The translations under genes were made by a program, and so were the position numbers. Below the pieces are notes generated by a model. That model saw only the letters and a program-made list of their open reading frames with translations, was not told the origin of the DNA and did no database searches. Positions 33,838 through 61,040 of a stretch of 64,000 bases of DNA are shown here, piece by piece. The DNA is from Myxococcota bacterium (GTDB taxonomy: Bacteria; Myxococcota_A; UBA796; CAJQPC01). The stretch is from assembly GCA_036012755.1 (NCBI GenBank), contig DASCPX010000070.1:79034-143033 (forward strand), read 5' to 3'. Positions within the stretch are counted from its first letter, which is position 1. The number at the start of each line of letters is the position of its first letter.

Positions 33838-35099
33838 GGCACGACGCAGGGTCCGAACTCGCCCTCCAGTGCGGGACCGAGCTCGTCTTCGAGGATCACG
33901 TCGACCTCGAAGGGAAAGGACAGCGAGATCCCCCAGTCGTCCTGGACCAGGGACAGGGTGCGAAAGGTCTGGGCTGTGTGGCCGGCGTCGAAGGCGCCGC
34001 TCTGGCCGGTGGGCTCCCAGTCTGGCCAGTCGACCTCGAAGAGCTGGCCGGCGCGGGTGCACTCGGTGATGTCCGGGTTCTCGCAGCCGCTGTCGACGAC
34101 GAAGAGCCGGTCCCCCTCTGGAGCCAGCTCGATCTCCCGGACGAAGCCGAAGCCCTCGAGCCCCTCTGGCAGGATGCCGTCGCCAAGGTAGATCGGGCCG
34201 TCCAGGTCGAACTCGGCGACGCCCACGGAGCCGTGGAAGCCCTCGTAGGACTCGCTGGCGCCCAGGCTGTGGGCGTAGACGAGGAAGCGCTCGCCCCCGA
34301 CCTCCATGATCTTGCCGTGGTGGACCGCTGCGATGAAGCCCTCTGGCGGGTAGGACCAGGCGTGCTGTGGGTCGCTGGGATCTGTGACGTCCCACAGCAC
34401 GATGCGGCCGGTGTTGCGCGAGGCGACGTCGGGGAAGTCTCCGCTCTTGAAGGTGGTGAGCAGCCAGGTGCGGCCGTCCTCTTCGAAGAGCTCGACGTTG
34501 TTCGCGTAGAGGAAGCCGTCCCACGCGGGGTGCTCGTCGTCGAGCACGGCGTAGACCTGCGGCGGGTCGCCCGGGAGCAGCCAGACCACCCGGGAGCTCA
34601 GGGTGTCGGCGAGGACGAGGTAGCGCCCGTCGGGGCTCGGCGTCGTCACGTGGGTCATGTTCAGGTGGCAGTCCCCGCTCCACCCGTCGCTGTCGATGCA
34701 GGCGCCGTCCCGGTAGCCCGGGAGGTGCTCGTCGTAGGCCAGGGTCTCGATCTCCCAGATCGTCGACGGCGGGTGACCCGGTTCGAAGGCGGTGACGTAG
34801 CCGGGCAGGCCGCTCTCGATGTCCGTGTCGCGCCGGGCCCAGGTCAGCCTCAGCGACTCGAGACCGTCCTCGAAGGCGTAGTCGACGCCGAAGGGCAGGC
34901 ACTCTGCGATCTTGCTGCTCTTGGCCGGGCGGCAGAGCTCCGGGGCGAGCTCGAACATGCACTGGGTGCCGCGCACGACGTACTCGTTGCGGTCGATCAA
35001 GGTGAGCTGCGAGCGCCCGGTCTCTACCAACAAGAGCGCGTCGCCGGAGGGGGGCTCCGGGTCGGGTCTGCAAGAGAGGCCGGTGAGGATGAGCAGCAT
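33834..35099 (-). CDS. lipoprotein, beta-propeller-like, unknown function
   Basis: ATG 35099 (MLLILTGLSC) shares one nt with the upstream stop (TGATG). Alternative GTG 35132 would add MGPPLRVRRPL. Confidence 0.65.
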   Translation of the reverse strand: MLLILTGLSCRPDPEPPSGDALLLVETGRSQLTLIDRNEYVVRGTQCMFELAPELCRPAKSSKIAECLPFGVDYAFEDGLESLRLTWARRDTDIESGLPGYVTAFEPGHPPSTIWEIETLAYDEHLPGYRDGACIDSDGWSGDCHLNMTHVTTPSPDGRYLVLADTLSSRVVWLLPGDPPQVYAVLDDEHPAWDGFLYANNVELFEEDGRTWLLTTFKSGDFPDVASRNTGRIVLWDVTDPSDPQHAWSYPPEGFIAAVHHGKIMEVGGERFLVYAHSLGASESYEGFHGSVGVAEFDLDGPIYLGDGILPEGLEGFGFVREIELAPEGDRLFVVDSGCENPDITECTRAGQLFEVDWPDWEPTGQSGAFDAGHTAQTFRTLSLVQDDWGISLSFPFEVDVILEDELGPALEGEFGPCVVP

Positions 35100-36928
35100 C
35101 AAGGGTCGTCGAACTCGGAGGGGAGGGCCCACTCGGTCGTGCCGTCGAGCACGAAGCGGGCGTGGACATCGAAGAGCCAGGCTTGGAGCCTCGCCCCTCC
35201 ACAGTCACCCGACCAGAGCCGGCCGTCCACGGTGCACCCTTCTGTGTAGTCCCAGGCGCCGAGATCCGGAAGGTGGAAGGTCCAGGTTCCGTCCTCGGCG
35301 GCCAGCGCGCGGTGCAGCAGCAGGTCCAGCACGATGATGTCCTCGTCGTCGAGGATCTGACCGCCGCCGCGGCCCAGCTGCTGGCACTCCCGCAGGAAGA
35401 GGTTCGCGCAGCCGCCCTGGGAGAAGGCCGGGATGTTGTCGCCGGCGTGCAGCGAGGCCTGTCCCTCGGTCCACGGGGCAGTGAGCTCATCGAGGCGCTG
35501 TGGCCACTGGTCCTTGCTGCGCGGGTCGGTGTGGTGGGCGATCTCCGGCAGGACCGACATGCCGAAGAAGACGAAGCGCAGCGGGAGGTCGGTCTCCGCG
35601 AGGGCGTCGGACCAGGACAGGCCGAGGTCCTCGACCGGCGACAGACCGCTCACCCAGGTCGGCTCGCTGAGCTCGCGGATCGCCTCTGCCTCGGAGAGGA
35701 GGAAGTCCGCAGCGCAGGCCTCGTCGTCGCACTCCTCCGGCTCCTCGTGAAAGAGCACGCCGACCTCTGTCCTCTCGTCATTCCAGACGGGCTCGAAGGC
35801 CTCGCGCACCCCGCAGCTCTGGGCGCGCCGAGACAGGTGCGGCGTGATGCCCAGGGCCACGCTGGCGGGGAGGTCGTCCAGCAGGCAGCGGTTCTCGGCA
35901 GCGGTCTCGACCAGGCGGGTGACGGTCTCGCAGTCCTCGTTCTCGGCCGGGCTGCGGGGCTGCTCGGCGAAGGCGGCGATCGCGATCTGCAGGCCACCGA
36001 GGCGCGTCTCGTCGAAGTGGACGGCGACCGCTGTGTCCTGCAACAGGGCGATCTCAGGGCCGCGGAGGTCGAGGTCCACGGCGGCGCCCGGGTAGAGCTC
36101 GCCGTCGAGCCAGATGCCGTCGGGGGTGGTGAGCGCGACGTGGTCGCCGTCGGCGGCGACCGGGCCCAGGGCGCTCAGGGACGTGGTGCTCCCCGTGGCG
36201 ATCTCGTAGAGGCCGACGGTCGTGGTCGCGAAGCCGGGGGCAAGCCCCAGGACATCGAGCTCGACGAGGCCCTCTGGGCTCCACAGGCCCTCGGCGACGT
36301 GGACGACACCGTCCTCGACGGCCAGGGCGGTCGAGGGCAGCGCGTGCACCTCCAGCTCGGCGCCGTCGAGGGCCCGGATCTCGAGTGAGTCCCCGGCGAT
36401 CCAGAGCTGGTCTTCGTAGACATCGATCATCCCCGGGGCGACCTCGGCGATGTGCTCGGGGCGGAGGTGGTCCCAGGGGTTGTCGAGGCGGGGATTGGCG
36501 TCGGCGCGCCAGAGGCCACCGTCTGTCGTCACCACGAAGACCTCGCCATCACCGACGGCAAGGTCGACGGGCTCGGAGTCGAAGACCCAGGCCCCCCGGC
36601 GCAGGTAGACCTCGCCCTCGGCGCAGCGGCCCTGGCGTCCCTCTGTCTCGAACTGGGGCCAGTCCTCCGTGTCGAGGCAGGCTGGGGCAGCGCTCTGGTG
36701 CCAGCGGCTGTCGAAGACGTGGACGCGATCCCCGTCCAGCACCAGGGCGAGAGGGTGTGTCTCGAGGAGCTCGATGCGGCTCGGCGCGATGGGATCCTCG
36801 ATGGGGGCCTCGAGCAAGGCACGGAAGGGCTCTCGCTCGATGGGGGCGAGCTCGGCCCAGGGCTCCGGCACGACCGGATCGGAGTCCGGCGTGGCGGCGG
36901 GTCGACAGGCCAGCGACAAGAGCAGCAA
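35099..36928 (-). CDS. lipoprotein, 609 aa, unknown function
   Basis: TTG start 36928 (MLLLSLAC), 17 nt after the radical SAM stop. Cys-rich C-terminal half. Confidence 0.65.
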   Translation of the reverse strand: MLLLSLACRPAATPDSDPVVPEPWAELAPIEREPFRALLEAPIEDPIAPSRIELLETHPLALVLDGDRVHVFDSRWHQSAAPACLDTEDWPQFETEGRQGRCAEGEVYLRRGAWVFDSEPVDLAVGDGEVFVVTTDGGLWRADANPRLDNPWDHLRPEHIAEVAPGMIDVYEDQLWIAGDSLEIRALDGAELEVHALPSTALAVEDGVVHVAEGLWSPEGLVELDVLGLAPGFATTTVGLYEIATGSTTSLSALGPVAADGDHVALTTPDGIWLDGELYPGAAVDLDLRGPEIALLQDTAVAVHFDETRLGGLQIAIAAFAEQPRSPAENEDCETVTRLVETAAENRCLLDDLPASVALGITPHLSRRAQSCGVREAFEPVWNDERTEVGVLFHEEPEECDDEACAADFLLSEAEAIRELSEPTWVSGLSPVEDLGLSWSDALAETDLPLRFVFFGMSVLPEIAHHTDPRSKDQWPQRLDELTAPWTEGQASLHAGDNIPAFSQGGCANLFLRECQQLGRGGGQILDDEDIIVLDLLLHRALAAEDGTWTFHLPDLGAWDYTEGCTVDGRLWSGDCGGARLQAWLFDVHARFVLDGTTEWALPSEFDDP

Positions 36929-36945
36929 GGCCTCAGTCTAGCCGC

Positions 36946-42764: not shown

Positions 42765-43750
42765 CCCGAAGATGCCTGCTCGGTGGGGCCGCGGCGCTTG
42801 TCCTCGCGTGCAACCGAGACCCTGGTAACAACAACGATATCGACGAGTTGGCCAGCGAGCCGCTGGACGTTGACGCCTACGCCAGTGCCTTGGAGGAGGC
42901 GCTGGCTGGCACGGGACACGAGGACGCCGTGGCCCCGGGCTGCGCTGCCTTCGAGGACATCCGGGTCCTGTTGGCCGAGCACGCGCCCATCAGCGCCGCT
43001 GTCTTGTCCCGGACCTTCAACGAGCTGGCCGTTCCGATGGCCCAGGGGCTTGCCGCCTGCCGGGACCAGACGGATCCGACCACCATCCGAGAGGCCCTGG
43101 CCGCCGGCATGGACGCAGCGGCCTTCGCCGAGATCGCCGGGCTCTGGGGGCGCATGAACGAAGAGCTGGAGGGGCTCGGCGTGCAAGGCGCCGCGGACGA
43201 GGATCGCCTGGACGAGGTCCGCTCCTACTTCACCGACATGCCCCGGGCCCTGGCCCAGGCGAGCATCGATCTCGAGGACATGCAGCCGGGGCTGGAAGAC
43301 AGCCCGGTGACCCTCGGGACCCTCTCCCAGCTGCACGACTTCATCGCCCACATCGGTCGGGACGACCTCGACGAGGCCCTCGACGACGGCGCGGTGCTGG
43401 CGAACCTCTCGACGCTCTACTTCGGAATCGCGGAGGGCAAGGCTGTCGCGCTGCCGCCTCCGTTGGACTGCGAGTCCGAGTGGGAGGAGATCAAGTACTG
43501 GCTCACGGTCATCGCGTTCATCATCGCGGTGTTGGCCATCGCTGCAGCTGTCGCGGCCCTGTTGGGCGGGCCCGCGGGGCTGTTCGTCGTCGCCTTGCTC
43601 GGCGCGGTCTTCTCAGAGGGCTCGGCGATGATGATCGCCACCCTGTTGGCCTTCATCTTCGTCGGGCTCACCATCGCGAAGTCCAGCGGTGAGACGGTCG
43701 TCACCAAGCCGGTCGACTGTGTCTGCCAGGCCATGACGGGGGCGGAGTGA
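42758..43750 (+). CDS. lipoprotein with a Tat-like signal and C-terminal TM helices
   Basis: ATG 42758 (MLTRRCLLGGAAALVLAC) overlaps the end of the DUF2779 gene. The C-terminal hydrophobic block is WLTVIAFIIAVLAIAAAVAALLGG…. Confidence 0.65.
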   Translation: MLTRRCLLGGAAALVLACNRDPGNNNDIDELASEPLDVDAYASALEEALAGTGHEDAVAPGCAAFEDIRVLLAEHAPISAAVLSRTFNELAVPMAQGLAACRDQTDPTTIREALAAGMDAAAFAEIAGLWGRMNEELEGLGVQGAADEDRLDEVRSYFTDMPRALAQASIDLEDMQPGLEDSPVTLGTLSQLHDFIAHIGRDDLDEALDDGAVLANLSTLYFGIAEGKAVALPPPLDCESEWEEIKYWLTVIAFIIAVLAIAAAVAALLGGPAGLFVVALLGAVFSEGSAMMIATLLAFIFVGLTIAKSSGETVVTKPVDCVCQAMTGAE

Positions 43751-45210
43751 TGCTGGTTCTGACCCTGATCGGCTGCATGTTCGAGGTCGTCGACTGGCTG
43801 GGAAACGCGGCCAGTCGCGGCTACGAGAGCCTGGAGTTCGTAGCGCTCGACATGGACTGTGCTGCCGACGTCTACACGCTCGATGCCTACCTCCAAGGCG
43901 AGACCCCCTCGACCGTGACGGCGGAGATCTACACGGACGAGACCGGCTCCACCGTAGACCGGAAGGTGGCGCTCTCGGCGGACTACGAAAACGGCGGCGC
44001 TGGCATCCACCGCTTCTACGCGGAGGACATCGAGCTCCCCTGCACCTCCTCCCGCCTGGTGGTGATCTCGGCGACCAACATGTGCGAGGAGCTCTCGGAG
44101 CAGGTCACCTGGGAAGCAGCGGAAATAGGCGACATCGTTCCGGATGTAGGTCCGTCAGACGGTGGACAACAGGTGCTGGTCGGGCTTCGAGAGGGGAGCT
44201 ACGACTGGTCGTCTGTGGAGCTCTACTTCGGACAGGGCTCCTCGACGTGGGCGGCCGCATCCGACGTCCAGATAGGGACCGACTGCTCGGATCTCGAGAC
44301 CGACGCCTGCATCACGGCGACCTCCCCCGACTACGGCTCGGCGGAGACCGTCTCGCTGCGCCTCGTTGACGCCAACGGCAACGAGACCCTGTCGCAGGAC
44401 GCCTACACCTTCCACAGTCCCAACCGCGACATGCCCACCGGACTGGGCCGAGCGATGATGATCGCCTTCGACCCGACCTGGTTCTACCTGGGCAGCCCCT
44501 ACGGCAGCATCGGCGAGTCCTACGAGTACCTGCAGGTCGATCTGCTGATGCACGAACCCATCGACGGGCCCTACCACATGTGGGACGCGGCGCCCGCCGT
44601 CGGCGAGTGCTCCTGGGGCGAGTCCATGTGGACCACCTTGGATGTCGGCACCTATGTCGAGCTCCACGGGGACGTCGCCGACGCGACGCTTCCCAACGTC
44701 GGAGGTGGGGTCTACTACTACCTGGACTCCAACAGCGGACACGAACTGTACGCCGGCGAGGCGGTCGACCTGGAGATCCCCGATGGTGTGGAGAGCTATC
44801 CAGCACAGACCATACCCGACGCTTTCGTCTTCCCGGAGCTGCTGAGATCCACCTCCTTTGGGGATCCCTCAGAGGACGAGTTCGGCGTCCAGATCGTTCC
44901 GCGCGGGGACGACATCGTGCTGAGTTGGACCCCGGGCGAGGACATGGACGGTCTCACCTACACCCTGTCCGCGGTCCAAGACTACACGACGCTCTCGACG
45001 ACGACCTGCACGGTCGACCCTGACGCGGGTGTCCTCGTCGTTCCGTGGACGGACCTCGTCGAGAGCGGCGACACCGGCTCGGTCGATGGCATCCTCGTGG
45101 ACATGGAGTTCTGGAAGGACAACCTCGCGGTGGTGCCGCATGACGGCTCGACCTTCTGGGCTCGCTCCACCATCTGGCTCGAGAGCTACGTCGCGGTGGT
45201 GGAGCCGTGA
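43747..45210 (+). CDS. lipoprotein, 487 aa, possible IPT/TIG-like domain
   Basis: ATGA overlap. MMLVLTLIGC. Acidic and Trp-rich. No confident family assignment. Confidence 0.6.
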   Translation: MMLVLTLIGCMFEVVDWLGNAASRGYESLEFVALDMDCAADVYTLDAYLQGETPSTVTAEIYTDETGSTVDRKVALSADYENGGAGIHRFYAEDIELPCTSSRLVVISATNMCEELSEQVTWEAAEIGDIVPDVGPSDGGQQVLVGLREGSYDWSSVELYFGQGSSTWAAASDVQIGTDCSDLETDACITATSPDYGSAETVSLRLVDANGNETLSQDAYTFHSPNRDMPTGLGRAMMIAFDPTWFYLGSPYGSIGESYEYLQVDLLMHEPIDGPYHMWDAAPAVGECSWGESMWTTLDVGTYVELHGDVADATLPNVGGGVYYYLDSNSGHELYAGEAVDLEIPDGVESYPAQTIPDAFVFPELLRSTSFGDPSEDEFGVQIVPRGDDIVLSWTPGEDMDGLTYTLSAVQDYTTLSTTTCTVDPDAGVLVVPWTDLVESGDTGSVDGILVDMEFWKDNLAVVPHDGSTFWARSTIWLESYVAVVEP

Positions 45211-54318: not shown

Positions 54319-55638
54319 TCAGGTCCCAGAGAACTGCACCCCATCGAAGACCAGGGTCGGCACGCGGTAGCTCGAGTGCTTCCACACGTCGCTGGCGGGC
54401 TCGACGAAGCGGGAGATGAGGTCGATGAGGTTTCCCGTCACGTTCATCTCGCTGAGGTTCTGGGCCCACTCGCCGTGGCGGTAGAGCTGGCCCCGGATGC
54501 CGAAGCTGAAGTCCCCGCTGGCGGGGTTCGAGTTGCCGCCGAGGAAGCTCGTGACTCGGATGCACTCGGGGTAGCTCGCGGCGATCTCCCGCCAGGAGCG
54601 TGGGCCGGGGGCGATGACCACGTTCCCGGCTCGCCCGGTCGTCGGCTCCACGCCGAGCTTGCGGGAGTGGTAGAGGCCGACGTACCAGGTGTTCAACACA
54701 CCCTCTGTGAAGATGGGACGCGCGCGGGCGACGAAGCCGTCTCCGTCGAAGGGCTTCGAGCCGAGGCCACGCGGGATGGTCGGATCGTCGAGGACCGAAA
54801 AGGCGCTGGAGCCGAGCTTGTCTCCGAGCTTGTCGTGCATGCAGCTGCGGCCGTGATGAAGGGAGGTGCCAGAGAGCGGGCTCAACAGGGCGCCGAGGAG
54901 CCGGGGGGCGACCCGGGCGTCCAGCAGCATCGGGCAGACCGTGGAGGCGCAAGCAGAGGTGTCCCGGACGGCCGCGGCGCGGGTCCAGAGGTCCTCTGCC
55001 ACCGCGCTCATGGTCGGCAGGTCGTCGAGGTGGGCGGCGTTGATGAAGCTGTAGGCCTCTGGCAGCTTTCCGCTCGGCTCCTTCAGCGTCACCATGCCGC
55101 CGAAGCCGAAGTGGGTGCGCTCGGAGTGACCCTCGAAGCCGTTGCTGAAGGCGCAGTCGGAGCGATTCCGCATGTCCCACAAGAAAGCCGTGGCGGAGAC
55201 CAGGTCGTCGCCGGCGCCTGCGAGCACGGCCTCCTCCAGCCGGGCGATGCCCCCTCGCCGGATCACGCTGTCTCGCCCGTCGAAGCTGGTCTCGTCAGCG
55301 GCGTCCAGGGAGGCGACGTCCAGGCTGCCCATGCGCTCCCGCGCGGCCATCGCCCGGTCGGGATCGGGCTCCAGGTAGCGGGTCCCGTCGACCGCCCGCT
55401 GGAGGAAGGCCTCGACAGCCTCGGGCCGCAGATCAGAGGTGCTGTGAGAGGAGAAGCGCTCGTCGACCAGGAGGCTCACGGAGAGACCGAGGGTGCTGGC
55501 CTCGTGGACCCGCTCGAGCTTGCCGGCGCGACGCTCCAGCTCGACCTCGCTGCCCGAACGCACGTAGGCCTTGACCTCGTCGGCGCCCAGTCTCCGGGCG
55601 GTCTCGACCGCGTTGTTGGCCGTCTCGATCGGTGTCAT
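54319..55638 (-). CDS. pmbA: PmbA/TldE metalloprotease subunit
   Basis: The N-terminus (…AVETARRLGADEVKAYVRSGSEVELERRAGKLE…) is typical of the TldE family. ATGA overlap with tldD. Confidence 0.85.
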   Translation of the reverse strand: MTPIETANNAVETARRLGADEVKAYVRSGSEVELERRAGKLERVHEASTLGLSVSLLVDERFSSHSTSDLRPEAVEAFLQRAVDGTRYLEPDPDRAMAARERMGSLDVASLDAADETSFDGRDSVIRRGGIARLEEAVLAGAGDDLVSATAFLWDMRNRSDCAFSNGFEGHSERTHFGFGGMVTLKEPSGKLPEAYSFINAAHLDDLPTMSAVAEDLWTRAAAVRDTSACASTVCPMLLDARVAPRLLGALLSPLSGTSLHHGRSCMHDKLGDKLGSSAFSVLDDPTIPRGLGSKPFDGDGFVARARPIFTEGVLNTWYVGLYHSRKLGVEPTTGRAGNVVIAPGPRSWREIAASYPECIRVTSFLGGNSNPASGDFSFGIRGQLYRHGEWAQNLSEMNVTGNLIDLISRFVEPASDVWKHSSYRVPTLVFDGVQFSGT

Positions 55639-57086
55639 CCCTCACCCCCGACGGTCAGCGAGCCCACCCGGACCGTGGGCTGGCCCTGGCTCACGGGCAC
55701 GCCCTGGCCGTCCTTTCCGCAGGTCCAGCCGCCCTCGTCGAGCAGCAGGTCGCCGCCGACCATGTCCACCTGTTCCAGCGCCGCGGGGCCGTTGCCGATG
55801 ATGTTCACGTCCTTGATCGGTCGCGTCAGCTTGCCGTCCTCGATGAGCCAGCCGGTCTTCATGTAGAAGGTGAAGTCGCCCGCTCCGATCTGGACCGCGC
55901 CGTTCTGGAAGGAGGTGCAGTAGATGCCTCGCTTCGTGTTGGCGATGATCTCCTCGGGGGAGTGGGGACCAGGCTCCATGTAGGTCGCCCGCATGCGCGG
56001 GATCGGGTGGTGGCGGAAGCTCTCCCGCCGGCCGGATCCGGTGGGCTGCACCCCGTAGTGGGCGGCGCTGATCTCGTCGTGCATGTAGCCGCGCAGGACA
56101 CCCTCCTCGATGAGCACGGTGCGCTCGGCGAGGTTGCCCTCGTCGTCCACGTTGATGGCGCCCCTGCTGCCCTCGACCGTGCCGTCGTCGACGACCGTGA
56201 CGAAGTCGGGAGCGACCTTCTTGTTCAGGCGAGAGGCATAGATGCTGATGCCCTTGCGGTTGAAATCAGCCTCCAGCCCGTGTCCGATGGCCTCGTGGAG
56301 CAGGATGCCGCTGGCTCCGGCGGCGAGGACGACTGGCATCTCCCCAGCCGGGGGCTTGCCCGCGTCCAGGAGGAAGGTGGTCCGCTCGACGGCCCTTCGA
56401 ACCATGCGATCCTGCCGCTCCAGGTCGTCGAAGTACTCGAGCCCGGCGCGAGCGGCGAGGTTGTAGCTGTTGCTCTCCAGGCGGCCGCCCTCGGCCTCTG
56501 CGGAGCAGACGACCATGGCCCGGCACATGGGCTGGTAGTCCTCTGCCAGGCGTCCGTCCGGGCGCACGATCAGCAGGACCCTCTCTCCGTCGACGAGGTG
56601 GGTCTGGACCTTCTGGATGCGTTCGTCGAGGGCGAAGGCCTGCTCCTCCCAGCGACGCACCATCGGCACGCGCAGGTCCATGCCGACGGCCTCCCAGCGC
56701 CTCTGGACCGGGTAGTAGGAGGGCAGGTCCAACAGCGCGAGGTCCACGGTCTCCCTCGAGCCACCACCGGCAGCGATGGCCGAGGCGGTCTTCGCAGCAG
56801 AGAGCATCGAAGCCAGGCCGAGGTTCTCCGTGTAGGCGTAGCCCACGGCCTCGCCGAAGCGGGCGCGCACTCCGAGGCCGAGGTCCACGTGGGTCGAGGC
56901 CTTGTTGACGGAGCCGTCCGACAGGGAGACCGAGGTGACCACGCTGTGCTCGAAGAAGAGGTCGCAGTCCGTGGCCCCTCCCGAGAGGGCGGCGGCGAGG
57001 ACGTTGTCGAGGACCTCTCGGCTGATGCCGAAGCGCTCGAAGTAGCGTCCACGAGGAGCCCCGTGGACCGTGATGGGCTGACTCAT
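55635..57086 (-). CDS. tldD: TldD metalloprotease
   Basis: HEAIGHGLEADFNRKG zinc-binding motif. 483 aa. Confidence 0.9.
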   Translation of the reverse strand: MSQPITVHGAPRGRYFERFGISREVLDNVLAAALSGGATDCDLFFEHSVVTSVSLSDGSVNKASTHVDLGLGVRARFGEAVGYAYTENLGLASMLSAAKTASAIAAGGGSRETVDLALLDLPSYYPVQRRWEAVGMDLRVPMVRRWEEQAFALDERIQKVQTHLVDGERVLLIVRPDGRLAEDYQPMCRAMVVCSAEAEGGRLESNSYNLAARAGLEYFDDLERQDRMVRRAVERTTFLLDAGKPPAGEMPVVLAAGASGILLHEAIGHGLEADFNRKGISIYASRLNKKVAPDFVTVVDDGTVEGSRGAINVDDEGNLAERTVLIEEGVLRGYMHDEISAAHYGVQPTGSGRRESFRHHPIPRMRATYMEPGPHSPEEIIANTKRGIYCTSFQNGAVQIGAGDFTFYMKTGWLIEDGKLTRPIKDVNIIGNGPAALEQVDMVGGDLLLDEGGWTCGKDGQGVPVSQGQPTVRVGSLTVGGEG

Positions 57087-57095
57087 GGGGTGGGC

Positions 57096-57944
57096 TTAAC
57101 TCCAGACCGCCAGCTCCAGGGCGGTGGCGCTGATGTTCAGGCAGACGTGAGCCACGATGGCGCTCTCGACGCCGCTTCGGCGTGCCAGCCAGCCGAAGAA
57201 GAGGCCGATGAGGAAGATCTGGAGGATCTTCATCCCGGGGGCGGTCGTGTTCGGCGCGTGGAGGATGGCCCAGAACACCGAGGTCAGGACGATGGCGACC
57301 CAGCCGGCTCTCTCGGTGCCGCCGAACCACTTCTCGAGCCAGCGCTGGACCACGCCACGGAAGAGCAGCTCCTCGCCGACCGCCGCGGCGCAGACCGCCG
57401 GCAGCACCACCCCCCACTGGAACCAGCCGGCGTCGCGGTCGAGGTCGGGTGTGAGATCCATGGCGAAGTCGAGGAGCGAGCCGATCTCTATGCCGAGGAG
57501 GTGGAAGGCCAGGGTGCTCAGGATGCCGAAGAGCAAGCCGGCGCCTGCCCCGATGAGCCATCCCGAGGTGGCGTCCGGCAGCCCGTAGAGCTTCGGGAAG
57601 GGGTGGCTCGGCCCCCCTGCTCGAAGCGCCACCGGCACCATGATCCCGTACAGCCCGAGGGTGATGAGCGCGCCGGTGACCACCCCGGTCAGCGCGGCCG
57701 CCGGGTTGTCCTGGTTCGGCAGGAAGGGGATCAGCTCGCTGATGTCCGTGTACAGCGCCCCGACCACCCGGTTCGGGAGGTCGAGCAGCACCATCCCCCC
57801 GGCGATGACGAGGCCCTTCTTGAAGTTCGCCGTGGTGTGGGTCCAGGACCGCGCGGCGGCGATGAAGACAGCCAGCATGGCGCCGCCCTGCAGCGCGGCC
57901 CCGAAGAAGGTCAGGAGCAGGACGGGGATCGAGACGTTGTCCAT
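57096..57944 (-). CDS. CPBP-family (CAAX-type) intramembrane glutamic endopeptidase
   Basis: EELLFRGVVQ and FWAILH motifs with multiple TM segments. The start is taken as ATG 57944 (MDNVSIPVLLL). Upstream alternatives at 57968 and 58019 would overlap the divergent gene. Confidence 0.8.
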   Translation of the reverse strand: MDNVSIPVLLLTFFGAALQGGAMLAVFIAAARSWTHTTANFKKGLVIAGGMVLLDLPNRVVGALYTDISELIPFLPNQDNPAAALTGVVTGALITLGLYGIMVPVALRAGGPSHPFPKLYGLPDATSGWLIGAGAGLLFGILSTLAFHLLGIEIGSLLDFAMDLTPDLDRDAGWFQWGVVLPAVCAAAVGEELLFRGVVQRWLEKWFGGTERAGWVAIVLTSVFWAILHAPNTTAPGMKILQIFLIGLFFGWLARRSGVESAIVAHVCLNISATALELAVWS

Positions 57945-57966
57945 CGCGCGCAGGTTAGCGGAGGGC

Positions 57967-58512
57967 ATGGCGTGGATTCGGACCGTTGGCGACGACGAGG
58001 CCCTCGGCAGCCTCGCCAAGCACTACCGAGGCGCGCTCAGGCGCGCCGGGCGGGTCTTCGGGATCGTGCGGCTCCACAGCCTGGACCCCCGGCTGCTCGG
58101 GGCCTCGATGCGGCTCTACCACGCCACGACCACCGACGAGGACCTCCCCCTGACCCGCGCGCAGCGAGAGCTGATCGCGGTCGTGACGTCGAAGGCCAAC
58201 GACTGCTTCTACTGAACGGAGGCGCACGGAGAGGATCTCCGTGGTGCTGGCTTCCCGGACTCCCTCGTCGATCACATCGTGCGCGACTGGAAGAGCGCCG
58301 AACTCTCCAGCGTGGATCGGGCTCTGTGCGAGTACGCCGAGAAGCTGACGCTGTCACCCTCCGAGATGAAGCGCGCGGACGTCGACGCCCTGAGGGCAGT
58401 CGGGCTGACCGACGAGCAGATCCTCAACGCCGCCGCCACCTGCAGCTACTTCAACTTCATCAACCGGATGGCGGACGGGCTCGGGGTGGATCTGGAGCCC
58501 GAGATGAGGTGA
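57967..58512 (+). CDS. AhpD-like 'peroxidase-related' (carboxymuconolactone decarboxylase family) protein with in-frame TGA at 58213-58215: candidate selenoprotein (CxxU), or a nonsense-disrupted gene
   Basis: MAWIRTVGDDEALG…VTSKANDCFY-TGA-TEAHGEDL…YFNFINRMADGLGV. The two track ORFs (57640..58215 and 58279..58512) are in the same frame with no other stop between them. The TGA replaces the second Cys of the family motif NxCxYCxxxH. Confidence 0.7.
58222..58247 (+). promoter_or_regulatory. SECIS-like hairpin downstream of the in-frame TGA
   Basis: Core stem CACGGAG/CTCCGTG (58225-58231 paired with 58237-58243) with loop AGGAU. It can be extended by G-C, C-G and G-U pairs with one bulged G. The loop begins 19 nt downstream of the U of UGA. 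Confidence 0.55.
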
Positions 58513-59992
58513 GCTGCCGCCCGCAGAGGGTGGCCAGGGCCAGGATGCTGGTCTGGGGGTTCACGCCGGTGTTGCTCGGGAACACACTGGAGTCCGCCAC
58601 GTAGAGACCCTCGATGTGGTGGTGGCGGAAGTCCGGGCGCACCACCGAGGTGGCCGGATCGCTGCCCATGCGGCAGGTGCCGAAGAGGTGGGTGACGGCC
58701 ATGGAGTAGTGCGTGCCGAGCAGGGGGCCGTCGTCTTCGAAGGCGCGCATCTGCTCTGCCCCGGTGACCACCGACGGCATGCCGAAGACCCCGGGCTCGA
58801 CCTGCTCCGCGCCTGCCGCGAAGAGCAGCTCTCCGAGGACCCGCACCCCCCGACGCACCTTGAACAGGTCCCCACGACCCAGGTCGAAGCGAACCACCGG
58901 ACGGCCCCGGCGCAGGACGACCCGGCCCTCGCTCTCGGCGCGGACCGCGCAGCCCCAGTGGGCTGCCTCGTGCATCCGCTCCAGCTCACGGGCGAAGTCG
59001 ACGCCGAAGCCTCTCAGGCGAGCGGCGAGGATGGTCAGGTCGTAGCCAAGGGCCTCGAACTTCAGGCCCTCTCCCCTCAGCCCGGTGACCTCGTGGCCCT
59101 GGGTCGCGCCGGTCCACATGCGCACGGGCTCGCCGAAGCGTCCGGCGACGGCCACACCCGGATGACACTGGAAGTGCCGGCCCACGGGGCCCTGCCGGAT
59201 GCCCGAGGCCAGGAGCAGGGCAGGGGACTGCACCGCGCTGGCGGCGAGCACGACCGCGTGGGTGGCCCGCACCGAGACCCGGGCTCCTCCTTCGGCGCGT
59301 CCCGTGACACCGACGGCGCGACCTTGGGCTGTCTCGATCCGCTCCACGCGCACGCTGGCGGCGACGCGCGCCCCTCGCTCGCAGGCCTCTGGTAGCCAGG
59401 TTCGCTCCAGGCTCTGCTTGGCGCCGACGGGGCAGCCCTGCAAGCAGCGCCCAAGGCCCTCGCAGTCCCGCACGTTTCGGCGAATGGGTCGGTGAGCCAG
59501 CCCCAGCGCCTCCGCGCCACGGGCGAGCAGGGTGTTGTTGCGCCCGGCCACGGCCGGATCCGTCGGCGTGATGTGGAGGCCGGCTTCGACCTCGTCCGTG
59601 GCGGCCTCGATCCACTCCCAGGGCAGGGCCTCGGCCAGCGCCGGATCTTCGCGACGCCAGCCGTCGAAGACGTCCTCTGGGAGCCGCCAGCTGATGGCCC
59701 CGTTGACGACGGAGGTACCTCCGACGGCTCTGCCCTGGAGCAGCGCCATGGCCGGCTTCCCCCGCGTCACGCCGACGCCCATGTCCCGGTACAGGCTGCT
59801 CATGGCTCCGAAGCTGTCGCTCGAGGTCTCCGCCGGCTGCGGCATCGGGCCCTCCTCCAGCACCAGCACGTCGGCCCCCGCTGACGCCGCCGCTCGGGCC
59901 ACCGCTGCACCGGCCGGACCGCTGCCGATGATCACGACCTCGGCCTCCAGGCGCTCGTCGCCGCGCCAGCCTCGGCCGTCCAGCAGCTTCAC
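58460..59992 (-). CDS. GMC-family FAD oxidoreductase
   Basis: GTG 59992 (GTGA overlap). The FAD motif VVIIGSGPAGAAVA…VLVLEEG. C-terminal …LYVADSSVFPSNTGVNPQ. The 3' end overlaps the convergent AhpD-like gene by 53 nt. Confidence 0.85.
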   Translation of the reverse strand: MKLLDGRGWRGDERLEAEVVIIGSGPAGAAVARAAASAGADVLVLEEGPMPQPAETSSDSFGAMSSLYRDMGVGVTRGKPAMALLQGRAVGGTSVVNGAISWRLPEDVFDGWRREDPALAEALPWEWIEAATDEVEAGLHITPTDPAVAGRNNTLLARGAEALGLAHRPIRRNVRDCEGLGRCLQGCPVGAKQSLERTWLPEACERGARVAASVRVERIETAQGRAVGVTGRAEGGARVSVRATHAVVLAASAVQSPALLLASGIRQGPVGRHFQCHPGVAVAGRFGEPVRMWTGATQGHEVTGLRGEGLKFEALGYDLTILAARLRGFGVDFARELERMHEAAHWGCAVRAESEGRVVLRRGRPVVRFDLGRGDLFKVRRGVRVLGELLFAAGAEQVEPGVFGMPSVVTGAEQMRAFEDDGPLLGTHYSMAVTHLFGTCRMGSDPATSVVRPDFRHHHIEGLYVADSSVFPSNTGVNPQTSILALATLCGRQLTSSRAPDPPRARPPSG

Positions 59993-60357
59993 CGAGCCTC
60001 CGCGGCCCGTCGGACGTCCGGTCGTTGGAAGTGGGCGAAGCAGAGGACCAGCTTCAGGACCAGCGCCACCTGCCTCAGGGGGTACAGCGCCGAGTCCCCG
60101 AGAGCCTGCACCAGCTCCGCGCGCTGCGGTGGACTGAGCGAGCCCAGGCAGCGCCCCCGAGCGAGCGCCGAGGCCCAGACCACCCAGACCGCAGCTCGCA
60201 GACCCCAGCGCAACAGCGGCGGCGCGTGAGACTCGAGCTCTGGCCAGAAGAGCTCGACCGCGGCTGGCTCGAAGCCCGGCTGGCCTGGCAGCGGCGGGAG
60301 CATCGCGCTCAGGATCTGGTCGCGGGCCCGGCGCTCGGGCGAGGTCCAGGTCTTCAA
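59989..60357 (-). CDS. small hypothetical protein coupled to the GMC oxidoreductase
   Basis: 122 aa. Start and stop overlap both neighbours. One hydrophobic helix (LRAAVWVVWASALA). Confidence 0.55.
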   Translation of the reverse strand: MKTWTSPERRARDQILSAMLPPLPGQPGFEPAAVELFWPELESHAPPLLRWGLRAAVWVVWASALARGRCLGSLSPPQRAELVQALGDSALYPLRQVALVLKLVLCFAHFQRPDVRRAAEAR

Positions 60358-61040
60358 GCGAGGCGGGCCAGCGTGAGGGCGTCCAGCGCCTCGAGGGTGG
60401 TCGACACGACCCCGCGGGCCTGCTCCGGATCACCGGCTCGAAGCAGCGCCACCACCGCCGGGTAGCTGGCCGCGACGGCCGCGCGGTCGGTGTGCATCGC
60501 GGCCGCCAGCTCGGGGTGGACGGCGTAGGTGCGCATGACCGTGTTGAAGAGCAGGACCAGGGCCGGGTTTCCGGCGGCGCGGACCACGCGCTGGGAGAAG
60601 GCGATGTCGCGGGCGGCGAAGGCCTCTGCGTCGAGTTCGGCGGCGCCGACCTCGGCCTGCTGGGCGCGGGCCATGACCTCGAGGTCCTCGATGTCACCGT
60701 CGGAGGCTCGCTCGCAGGCCCGGGCCACGGCCTCTGCGGCGACACAGCGGCGCAGCTCGAGGAAACCCGCAGCCAGGGCACGATCGGGCTGCGCGAGCAG
60801 GTGCGGCAGCAGGTCGAAGCCGCCCGTCTCACGCCAGCTCCGGACCCTGTAGCCCGAGCCCTGGCGAGCGCTCAGCAGGCCAGCAGCGCAGAGCTGCGCC
60901 AGCGCCGCTCGCAAGGTCGGGCGACTGACGCCCATCGACTCCGCCAACCGCCGCTCTGCGGGCAGCACGCTCCCTACGGTCCACTCGCCCGCGATGACCC
61001 GGCGGGTCAACGCCTCTGCCGCTTGCTCGGTCCTCGTCAT
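60354..61040 (-). CDS. GntR-family transcriptional regulator (FadR/FCD subfamily)
   Basis: The wHTH region is LPAERRLAESMGVSRPTLRAALAQLCAAGLLSARQGSGYRV, followed by an all-helical FCD-like C-terminal domain. Confidence 0.9.
   Translation of the reverse strand: MTRTEQAAEALTRRVIAGEWTVGSVLPAERRLAESMGVSRPTLRAALAQLCAAGLLSARQGSGYRVRSWRETGGFDLLPHLLAQPDRALAAGFLELRRCVAAEAVARACERASDGDIEDLEVMARAQQAEVGAAELDAEAFAARDIAFSQRVVRAAGNPALVLLFNTVMRTYAVHPELAAAMHTDRAAVAASYPAVVALLRAGDPEQARGVVSTTLEALDALTLARLA

Follow-up and report, generated by a model that had tools for sequence, protein, structure and literature searches.

An in-frame TGA followed by a conserved hairpin marks an AhpD-like gene of an uncultured Myxococcota bacterium as a very probable selenoprotein gene

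An AhpD-like gene crossed by an in-frame TGA

The stretch analysed here, 64 kb of contig DASCPX010000070.1 from an uncultured Myxococcota bacterium (hereafter the window, whose first nucleotide is position 1), carries a gene for an AhpD-like protein whose reading frame is crossed by a single TGA, with a short hairpin directly behind it. The gene lies between a divergent gene for an Rce1-like protease and a convergent gene for a GMC oxidoreductase. Its start codon is the ATG at 57967-57969, and the sole stop ahead of the terminal TGA (58513-58515) is the in-frame TGA at 58213-58215. Reading through the latter gives a product of 82 + 1 + 98 = 181 residues, the centre of which runs ...VTSKANDCFY[TGA]TEAHGEDLRG.... 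A first-pass annotation of this DNA had described the frame, its coordinates, the single intervening TGA and the 181-residue read-through product, and the sequence and its translation reproduce all of these exactly. It had also held that open reading frame (ORF) calling misses the gene. This is the case in the ORF listing and with all public gene callers, which give an 82-aa ORF ending at 58215 and a 77-aa ORF from the GTG at 58279; in GenBank the gene is accordingly split into HJN74549.1 (82 aa) and HJN74550.1 (77 aa), both named ‘peroxidase’. Downstream of the TGA the frame is intact and its G+C content at third codon positions (GC3) is 0.86. No other in-frame TGA in the 64 kb has coding-type GC3 on either side of it without being a mere boundary between genes: three further candidates in the window were rejected as adjacent genes that share a frame. 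Homologues have their C-termini at ...DLEPEM(R) or only a few residues away.

We matched the read-through protein, with a cysteine substituted at the TGA, against family profiles. The product is an AhpD-like, ‘peroxidase-related’ protein of the TIGR01926/COG2128 family, the assignment that had been proposed for it: the match to TIGR01926 (‘peroxidase-related enzyme’) is full-length and above the cutoff (133.6 bits against 81.8; residues 3-178 on model positions 2-177 of 178), and the Pfam CMD domain PF02627 (carboxymuconolactone decarboxylase/AhpD superfamily domain) is found at residues 46-118 with 42.4 bits against a gathering threshold of 23.

The redox motif of the family, N-x-C-x-Y-[C/U]-x-x-x-H, is present, and its residues N78, C80, Y82 and H87 are each invariant in the 80 homologues compared below. 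The first-pass annotation had placed the TGA at the second cysteine of NxCxYCxxxH, and alignment with cysteine-type homologues and solved structures bears this out. The TGA falls on the second cysteine of CxYC in four public proteins (P0011, P0013, P0019 and P0020) and in the structures 6K40, 2OYO and 3C1L, with NRCVYCAVSHG of the structural homologues aligned to NDCFY[U]TEAHG of the window protein. The closest solved structures are the AhpD-like protein DR1765 of Deinococcus radiodurans (PDB 6K40), 2OYO, 3C1L, 2PFX and 2PRR (E = 2.7e-28 to 2.4e-19). They share N-x-C-x-Y-C-x-x-x-H-G and the C-terminal part with the window protein, but carry Cys rather than selenocysteine (Sec) at the second position. 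In the account of Zhao et al. 2020 given in PMC8945050, a dr1765 mutant is sensitive to H2O2 and the cysteines of the CxxC motif are needed for complementation.

Selenoproteins of this kind are well documented. An ‘AhpD-like protein (COG2128), CxxU’ was among the new selenoprotein families of the Sargasso Sea study of 2005, with 27 sequences and predicted selenocysteine insertion sequence (SECIS) elements (Zhang, Fomenko & Gladyshev; PMC1088965). ‘AhpD-like 1’ was the fourth most abundant selenoprotein family in the Global Ocean Sampling data, with 299 sequences (PMC2398784), and a 2026 review has an entry for ‘AhpD-like protein, TIGR01926, CxxU’ (PMC13188914). BSepDB takes this family as its worked example and emphasises how routinely annotation truncates such genes (PMC13326102). 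The window copy shares with this family its hidden Markov model (HMM) family, Sec predicted at the second cysteine position, a hairpin with a G-containing apical loop, and a stand-alone, single-domain architecture of ~180 aa. Nothing essential differs: the copy comes from a Myxococcota metagenome-assembled genome of 69% GC and is unannotated as a selenoprotein. The gene is thus an unannotated further member of a selenoprotein family known since 2005, and it leaves existing knowledge of selenoproteins unchanged. The practical value lies in correcting the annotation, in which HJN74549.1 and HJN74550.1 should most probably be one selenoprotein.

Two related families are distinct from it. NF041238 (AhpD_rel_CFYUT, ‘alkylhydroperoxidase-related (seleno)protein’, the ‘hypothetical protein 1’ of the Sargasso Sea study) has the same C-F-Y-U-T motif and a related AhpD/CMD-type domain. 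Its model has 357 positions, of which the window protein matches only 211-339, the C-terminal part, at 68.7 bits against a cutoff of 175; since the match is partial and below the cutoff, the gene is not a member. AhpD of Mycobacterium tuberculosis (TIGR00777) likewise carries a CxxC-x3-H redox motif on a CMD-type fold, but the window protein matches TIGR00777 only marginally and far below its cutoff (16.7 bits, E = 0.005, against 191.95). The second cysteine of the M. tuberculosis enzyme is reportedly the nucleophile that attacks AhpC, a role that fits Sec occupying this position. M. tuberculosis AhpD is reduced via lipoamide proteins (PMC8945050); beside the window gene there is neither an ahpC gene nor a lipoamide-system gene.

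Table 1. Features of the AhpD-like gene and the predicted elements of its Sec insertion (window positions)
Feature	Position	Strand	Basis
AhpD-like (TIGR01926) coding sequence, predicted selenoprotein; complete, 181 codons plus terminal TGA	57967..58515	+	Translation; HMM; homologues aligning from residue 1
GGAGG Shine-Dalgarno-like motif, 2 nt 5' of the start codon; putative function	57960..57964	+	Read from the sequence; short spacing
Cys80 codon TGC, first residue of the C-x-x-U redox motif	58204..58206	+	Cys in 80/80 homologues; first Cys of CxxC in 6K40, 2OYO and 3C1L
In-frame TGA, predicted Sec codon U83	58213..58215	+	TGA in 80/80 loci; Cys in Cys-type homologues
His87 codon CAC, +4 from Sec; also the first three bases of the hairpin 5' arm	58225..58227	+	His in 80/80 homologues
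Putative SECIS hairpin: 5' arm CACGGAG (58225-58231), loop AGGAU (58232-58236), 3' arm CUCCGUG (58237-58243)	58225..58243	+	Fold; covariation; fit to the bacterial SECIS model
Terminal TGA, genuine stop outside any hairpin context	58513..58515	+	Translation; ends of homologues; TGA usage in the window

Conservation of the TGA across assemblies and relatives

A single misread base, or two truly separate small genes, would also yield the 82-aa and 77-aa ORFs that gene callers report. The TGA is the same in independent data: a 591-nt region that includes it is 100% identical in four other independent assemblies (ERZ9811087, ERZ23491593, GCA_002896315.2 and GCA_024712055.1), and a fifth contig differs by one base elsewhere. 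The TGA is therefore not a sequencing error, and in none of the four is the codon TGC or TGT, which in sequencing reads would, by the first-pass annotation, have spoken against it. As for two genes, the stretch of 63 nt that separates the called ORFs codes for TEAHGEDLR..., a segment conserved in the family, and neither fragment alone matches the full family model (residues 3-178). We regard the chance of an error or of separate genes as negligible.

The fifth contig is a strain variant (L085:873-1121, sample ERZ23491172) in which the single differing base turns Tyr82 (TAC) into Asp (GAC), just before the predicted Sec codon. As all 80 homologues have Tyr82, the change may reflect a sequencing error or else be deleterious.

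We searched 5.8 billion proteins and considered the best 120 hits, which fall into three classes. A few are full-length proteins of ~184 aa with Trp at the position of the TGA (public predictions P0001-P0006); about 100 of the 120 are C-terminal fragments of ~104 aa that begin just past the TGA (MEAHGDDLR...); and the more distant full-length hits have Cys (CAYC, CEYC). The first class would speak for a decoding of UGA as a standard amino acid, be it Trp or Gly under a reassigned code or Cys brought in by a tRNA(Cys) that resembles tRNA(Sec) and has the anticodon UCA. Recoding of UGA from Sec to Cys is said to occur in a few bacteria. In the DNA behind P0003 and P0005 (L091:104-682 and L092:301-843), table 11 reads the codon as an in-frame stop, and their Trp calls are therefore an artefact of gene callers applying code 4 or 25 to short contigs. 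TGA is moreover the usual stop in the window, ending 17 of 20 checked genes including the AhpD-like gene itself, so that the genetic code is not reassigned. Against standard decoding also stand the isolation of this TGA, the only one in 64 kb with coding signal on both sides, and the conserved covarying hairpin described below, which a simple reassignment would make unnecessary. Standard decoding of the codon seems to us very improbable. As the fragments and the Trp calls show, the AhpD-like selenoprotein family is misannotated systematically.

The position is constant among relatives. Scanning a single genome for each GTDB species, we confirmed 579 relatives and compared the best 80 loci, from 80 species. 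All 80 carry TGA at the aligned codon, which in the alignment with Cys-containing homologues called for by the first-pass annotation is the place of their second cysteine. The TGA-bearing loci span Acidobacteriota, Planctomycetota, Chloroflexota, Actinomycetes, Gemmatimonadota, Verrucomicrobiota, Marinimicrobia, delta-proteobacteria and others.

The nearest relatives, loci L005 and L086 (69% identity), keep the TGA, the core of the hairpin and the divergent Rce1-like neighbour. Between these two, the ratio of nonsynonymous to synonymous substitution rates (dN/dS) is 0.04 upstream and 0.06 downstream of the TGA, and both halves of the gene are therefore translated and constrained. The window protein itself retains all family-invariant residues, and its C-terminal SYFNFINRMADGLGVDLEPEM is identical in L005.

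The hairpin past the TGA and predicted Sec insertion

The hairpin is as the first-pass annotation had described it: a 7-bp stem, CACGGAG/CTCCGTG, around the loop AGGAU, setting in 9 nt past the TGA, exact at 58225-58243. The stem is perfect (7/7 pairs), and the hairpin alone folds at -12.4 kcal/mol. An A-U pair is able to close the AGGAU loop, leaving GGA. Three of the six hairpin codons are rare in the genome (GC3 0.89), GGA making up 10% of Gly, GAT 13% of Asp and CGT 7% of Arg codons. An extension of the stem around a bulged G had been claimed as well. It does appear in the minimum free energy (MFE) fold, with G58224 bulged and the pairs C58223-G58244 and G58222-U58245, but it is not conserved among 28 sequences compared (pair 17-38 in 5 of 28, pair 16-39 in 17 of 28). 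We rejected it as part of the element; it is a local coincidence.

The bacterial SECIS (bSECIS) consensus, in the form in which PMC13188914 quotes it, has an apical loop of 3-9 nt on an upper stem of 4-16 bp, a G in the first two loop positions (mostly N1-G-[G/U]-N-N2, with N1 and N2 pairing), 16-37 nt from UGA to loop, and an MFE of at most -7.5 kcal/mol. The window hairpin lies within all four, with its 7-bp stem, A-G-G-A-U loop, -12.4 kcal/mol and a spacing of 16 nt, which is at the lower limit; the SECIS-like spacing asserted for it thus agrees with the published model. Like the SECIS elements of Escherichia coli fdhF and fdnG, it is a coding-region hairpin straight past the UGA whose small apical loop contains G residues, and it is presumably bound by SelB as they are. 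It differs from them in sequence, in lacking a bulged U in its conserved stem, and in its loop, A-GGA-U instead of a GGUC type. The resemblance is thus limited to the loose bSECIS consensus, since the features of the fdhF type that E. coli SelB recognises, a bulged U in the upper stem and a GU-containing apical loop, are absent.

We compared the hairpin region across 82 Sec-type genes (the window and homologous loci L005-L084 and L086), among which the region past the TGA aligns without gaps. Two pairing registers occur. Counted from the T of the TGA, register A, to which the window belongs, extends from +12 to +30 and reads CACGGRG/NGGAU/CUCCGUG; register B extends from +21 to +38 and reads GACCUC/CGNGCN/GAGGUC. 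Counting A as formed with at least 6/7 pairs and B with at least 5/6, we found A and/or B in 79 of the 82 genes: 47 form only B, 19 only A (the window included), 13 either and 3 neither. In the window, pairing is complete in A and poor in B (3/6 pairs); the upstream register is the one used there, while most sampled homologues use B. A segment CUCCG is common to both, serving as 3' arm in A and as 5' arm in B.

Covariation, for which the first-pass annotation had proposed a check by covariance modelling, supports both registers: compensatory changes and the RNAalifold core alike speak for a conserved structure. For this comparison the homologues were split by amino acid, according to whether Gly follows His87, and not by pairing, which avoids circularity. 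Among the 28 ‘HG’ sequences, 91.8% of register-A cells are paired, against 31-57% with a slid partner column, and there are five compensatory cells, a number reached by 1 of 500 shuffles. Three of these are changes from C-G to U-A, in which His CAC becomes CAU together with an Arg92-to-His change (CGU to CAU; loci L033, L049 and L064), and the remaining two are changes from G-C to A-U. In the 52 sequences compared for register B, 94.6% of cells are paired, with nine compensatory cells, which none of 500 shuffles reached. Given no structure, RNAalifold recovered a 5-bp core of A from the first set and B from the second.

The pairing is reflected in codon choice, synonymous sites being frozen in the segment common to both registers. 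Leu91 is CTC in 70 of 71 genes, with a codon entropy of 0.11 bits against 1.7-2.2 bits at ten other conserved Leu columns, which are dominated by CTG or a mix of CTG and CTC. Arg92 is encoded by CGT (44), CGG (30) and CGC (1), so that 74 of 76 have CGT or CGG; at six other Arg columns CGC predominates. In a small control of four Cys-type homologues a comparable hairpin is missing: the longest stem of each measures 3-6 bp, where the 82 Sec-type genes have a median of 7 bp, and the MFE averages about -8 kcal/mol against -14.1. These comparative data give a clean family-wide picture of a putative SECIS constraining both codon choice and amino-acid sequence.

One further idea, which we put forward tentatively and hold to be rather doubtful, is that the SECIS of the AhpD-like selenoprotein family exists in two mutually exclusive registers with which the protein sequence co-evolves, HGEDLR going with A and HAxDLRAEV with B. 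A literature search, which was not exhaustive, found no prior description of a two-register SECIS. If real and previously undescribed, it would be a natural case of a SECIS ‘sliding’ along a coding sequence within the spacing that SelB tolerates. The two-register element might also act as a bistable modulator of Sec insertion.

Taken together, these observations make it very probable that 57967-58515 (+) is a single gene encoding a Sec-containing protein with a functional SECIS. Family membership, conservation of the TGA and covariation of the hairpin all support the Sec-containing AhpD-like protein (CxxU) with a SECIS that had first been proposed. Several results weigh against it. Thermodynamically the hairpin is unremarkable: a 66-nt segment containing it gives z = -0.10 against dinucleotide shuffles of this 69% GC sequence, and when synonymous codons are resampled with the codon usage of the window, p is 0.22 for the MFE and 0.06 for the stem length (5.8% of resampled sequences have a stem as long). 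No Rfam family matches at gathering thresholds anywhere in the 64-kb window. ARAGORN finds no tRNA, and hence no tRNA-Sec, in the window, and in 60 homologous loci a single tRNA-Trp and no tRNA-Sec in the flanks; Pfam searches of 30 window ORFs detect no SelA, SelB or SelD; and tblastn with an E. coli SelD query has no match in the window or the homologous loci. Lastly, dN/dS between the window gene and L005 is higher downstream (0.52) than upstream (0.29) of the TGA, a comparison to be read with the caveat that a GC3 of ~0.9 compresses synonymous divergence and that residues 93-135 are variable family-wide. A permissive Rfam scan of 58150-58320 returned chance snoRNA hits only.

Because thermodynamics alone is not significant, support for the hairpin rests on the comparative evidence. 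It is this evidence, the TGA in 80 of 80 loci together with the covarying hairpin, that is decisive for more than chance.

The absence of Sec machinery from the window, the uneven dN/dS and the two fragments listed in GenBank are also what would be expected of a pseudogene, a relic in a lineage that has lost the Sec-decoding trait, in which the TGA terminates translation after 82 residues and the 98 codons downstream are decaying. The downstream frame shows little of such decay, with its high GC3, its family-invariant residues and the C-terminal stretch shared with L005 all in place. The hairpin is perfect in all seven pairs and upheld with the three rare codons, and the same arrangement recurs in 80 of 80 homologous loci. 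Relatives that keep the TGA with no conserved structure behind it, which the first-pass annotation had named as the mark of a pseudogene, are scarcely to be found, hairpin A and/or B being formed in 79 of 82 genes. A relic is in our judgement unlikely, with only a slim chance of being right. The Sec trait is known in Myxococcota, where Anaeromyxobacter dehalogenans has 11 selenoproteins (PMC1794560), and we infer that SelA, SelB, SelD and tRNA-Sec are present elsewhere in the genome. Judging by the AhpD-like gene, this uncultured Myxococcota population probably uses selenium.

Under the reading of the gene as a selenoprotein gene, a ribosome would arrive at the UGA at 58213-58215 and the hairpin, with its loop 16 nt past the UGA, would act as a bacterial SECIS. 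By the established bacterial Sec pathway, SelB-GTP with Sec-tRNA(Sec) would bind the hairpin, and Sec would be inserted with no termination. The terminal TGA at 58513, which no hairpin follows, would end translation. The product would thus carry a selenol/thiol redox centre, C80-F-Y-U83, followed by His87. In the proposed chemistry the nucleophilic attack would come from U83, resolution of the intermediate by C80 would pass through a selenenylsulfide, and a reductant would recycle the centre. By analogy with its Cys-type relatives, the product most likely acts as a peroxide-detoxifying or peroxiredoxin-reducing oxidoreductase.

Neighbouring genes and other features of the window

Across the 80 loci, no neighbouring gene family is common to more than 7, and no partner is therefore inferred for the AhpD-like protein. 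In the window, the divergent gene for an Rce1-like/CPBP intramembrane protease (57096-57944, -) starts 22 nt from the ATG of the AhpD-like gene (57967, +). With the starts so close, the promoter of the AhpD-like gene must lie inside the Rce1-like gene. The pairing is kept in L086, which is 69% identical, and in the strain variant L085; it is not conserved family-wide.

At its other end, the AhpD-like gene (stop 58513-58515, +) overlaps the 3' end of the convergent GMC gene (stop 58460-58462, -) by ~56 nt. The GMC gene, a 122-aa ORF and the gene of a GntR/FCD regulator (60354-61040) appear to make up a minus-strand operon.

Elsewhere in the window, a 1431-aa ORF (26702-30994, -) has as its only Pfam match a weak one to eCIS_core (PF13699, E = 1.3e-06) near the N-terminus, and the large ORFs near it at 33837-36937 and 43693-45207 have no Pfam match. 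The product of the gene at 31253-33076 (+) contains eight putative metal-binding repeats of the MopE type (PF11617, E = 9.8e-71), and the annotation of L001 places FG-GAP repeat proteins nearby on the same contig. Two adjacent genes at 54319-57086 (-), with an overlap of 4 nt, encode a TldD/PmbA metallopeptidase pair. Finally, an open frame of 990 aa (55632-58604, +) runs antisense to or out of phase with the TldD, Rce1-like and AhpD-like genes. It is spurious, as is typical of DNA with 69% GC, and ORF length alone is therefore not evidence for a gene in this window.

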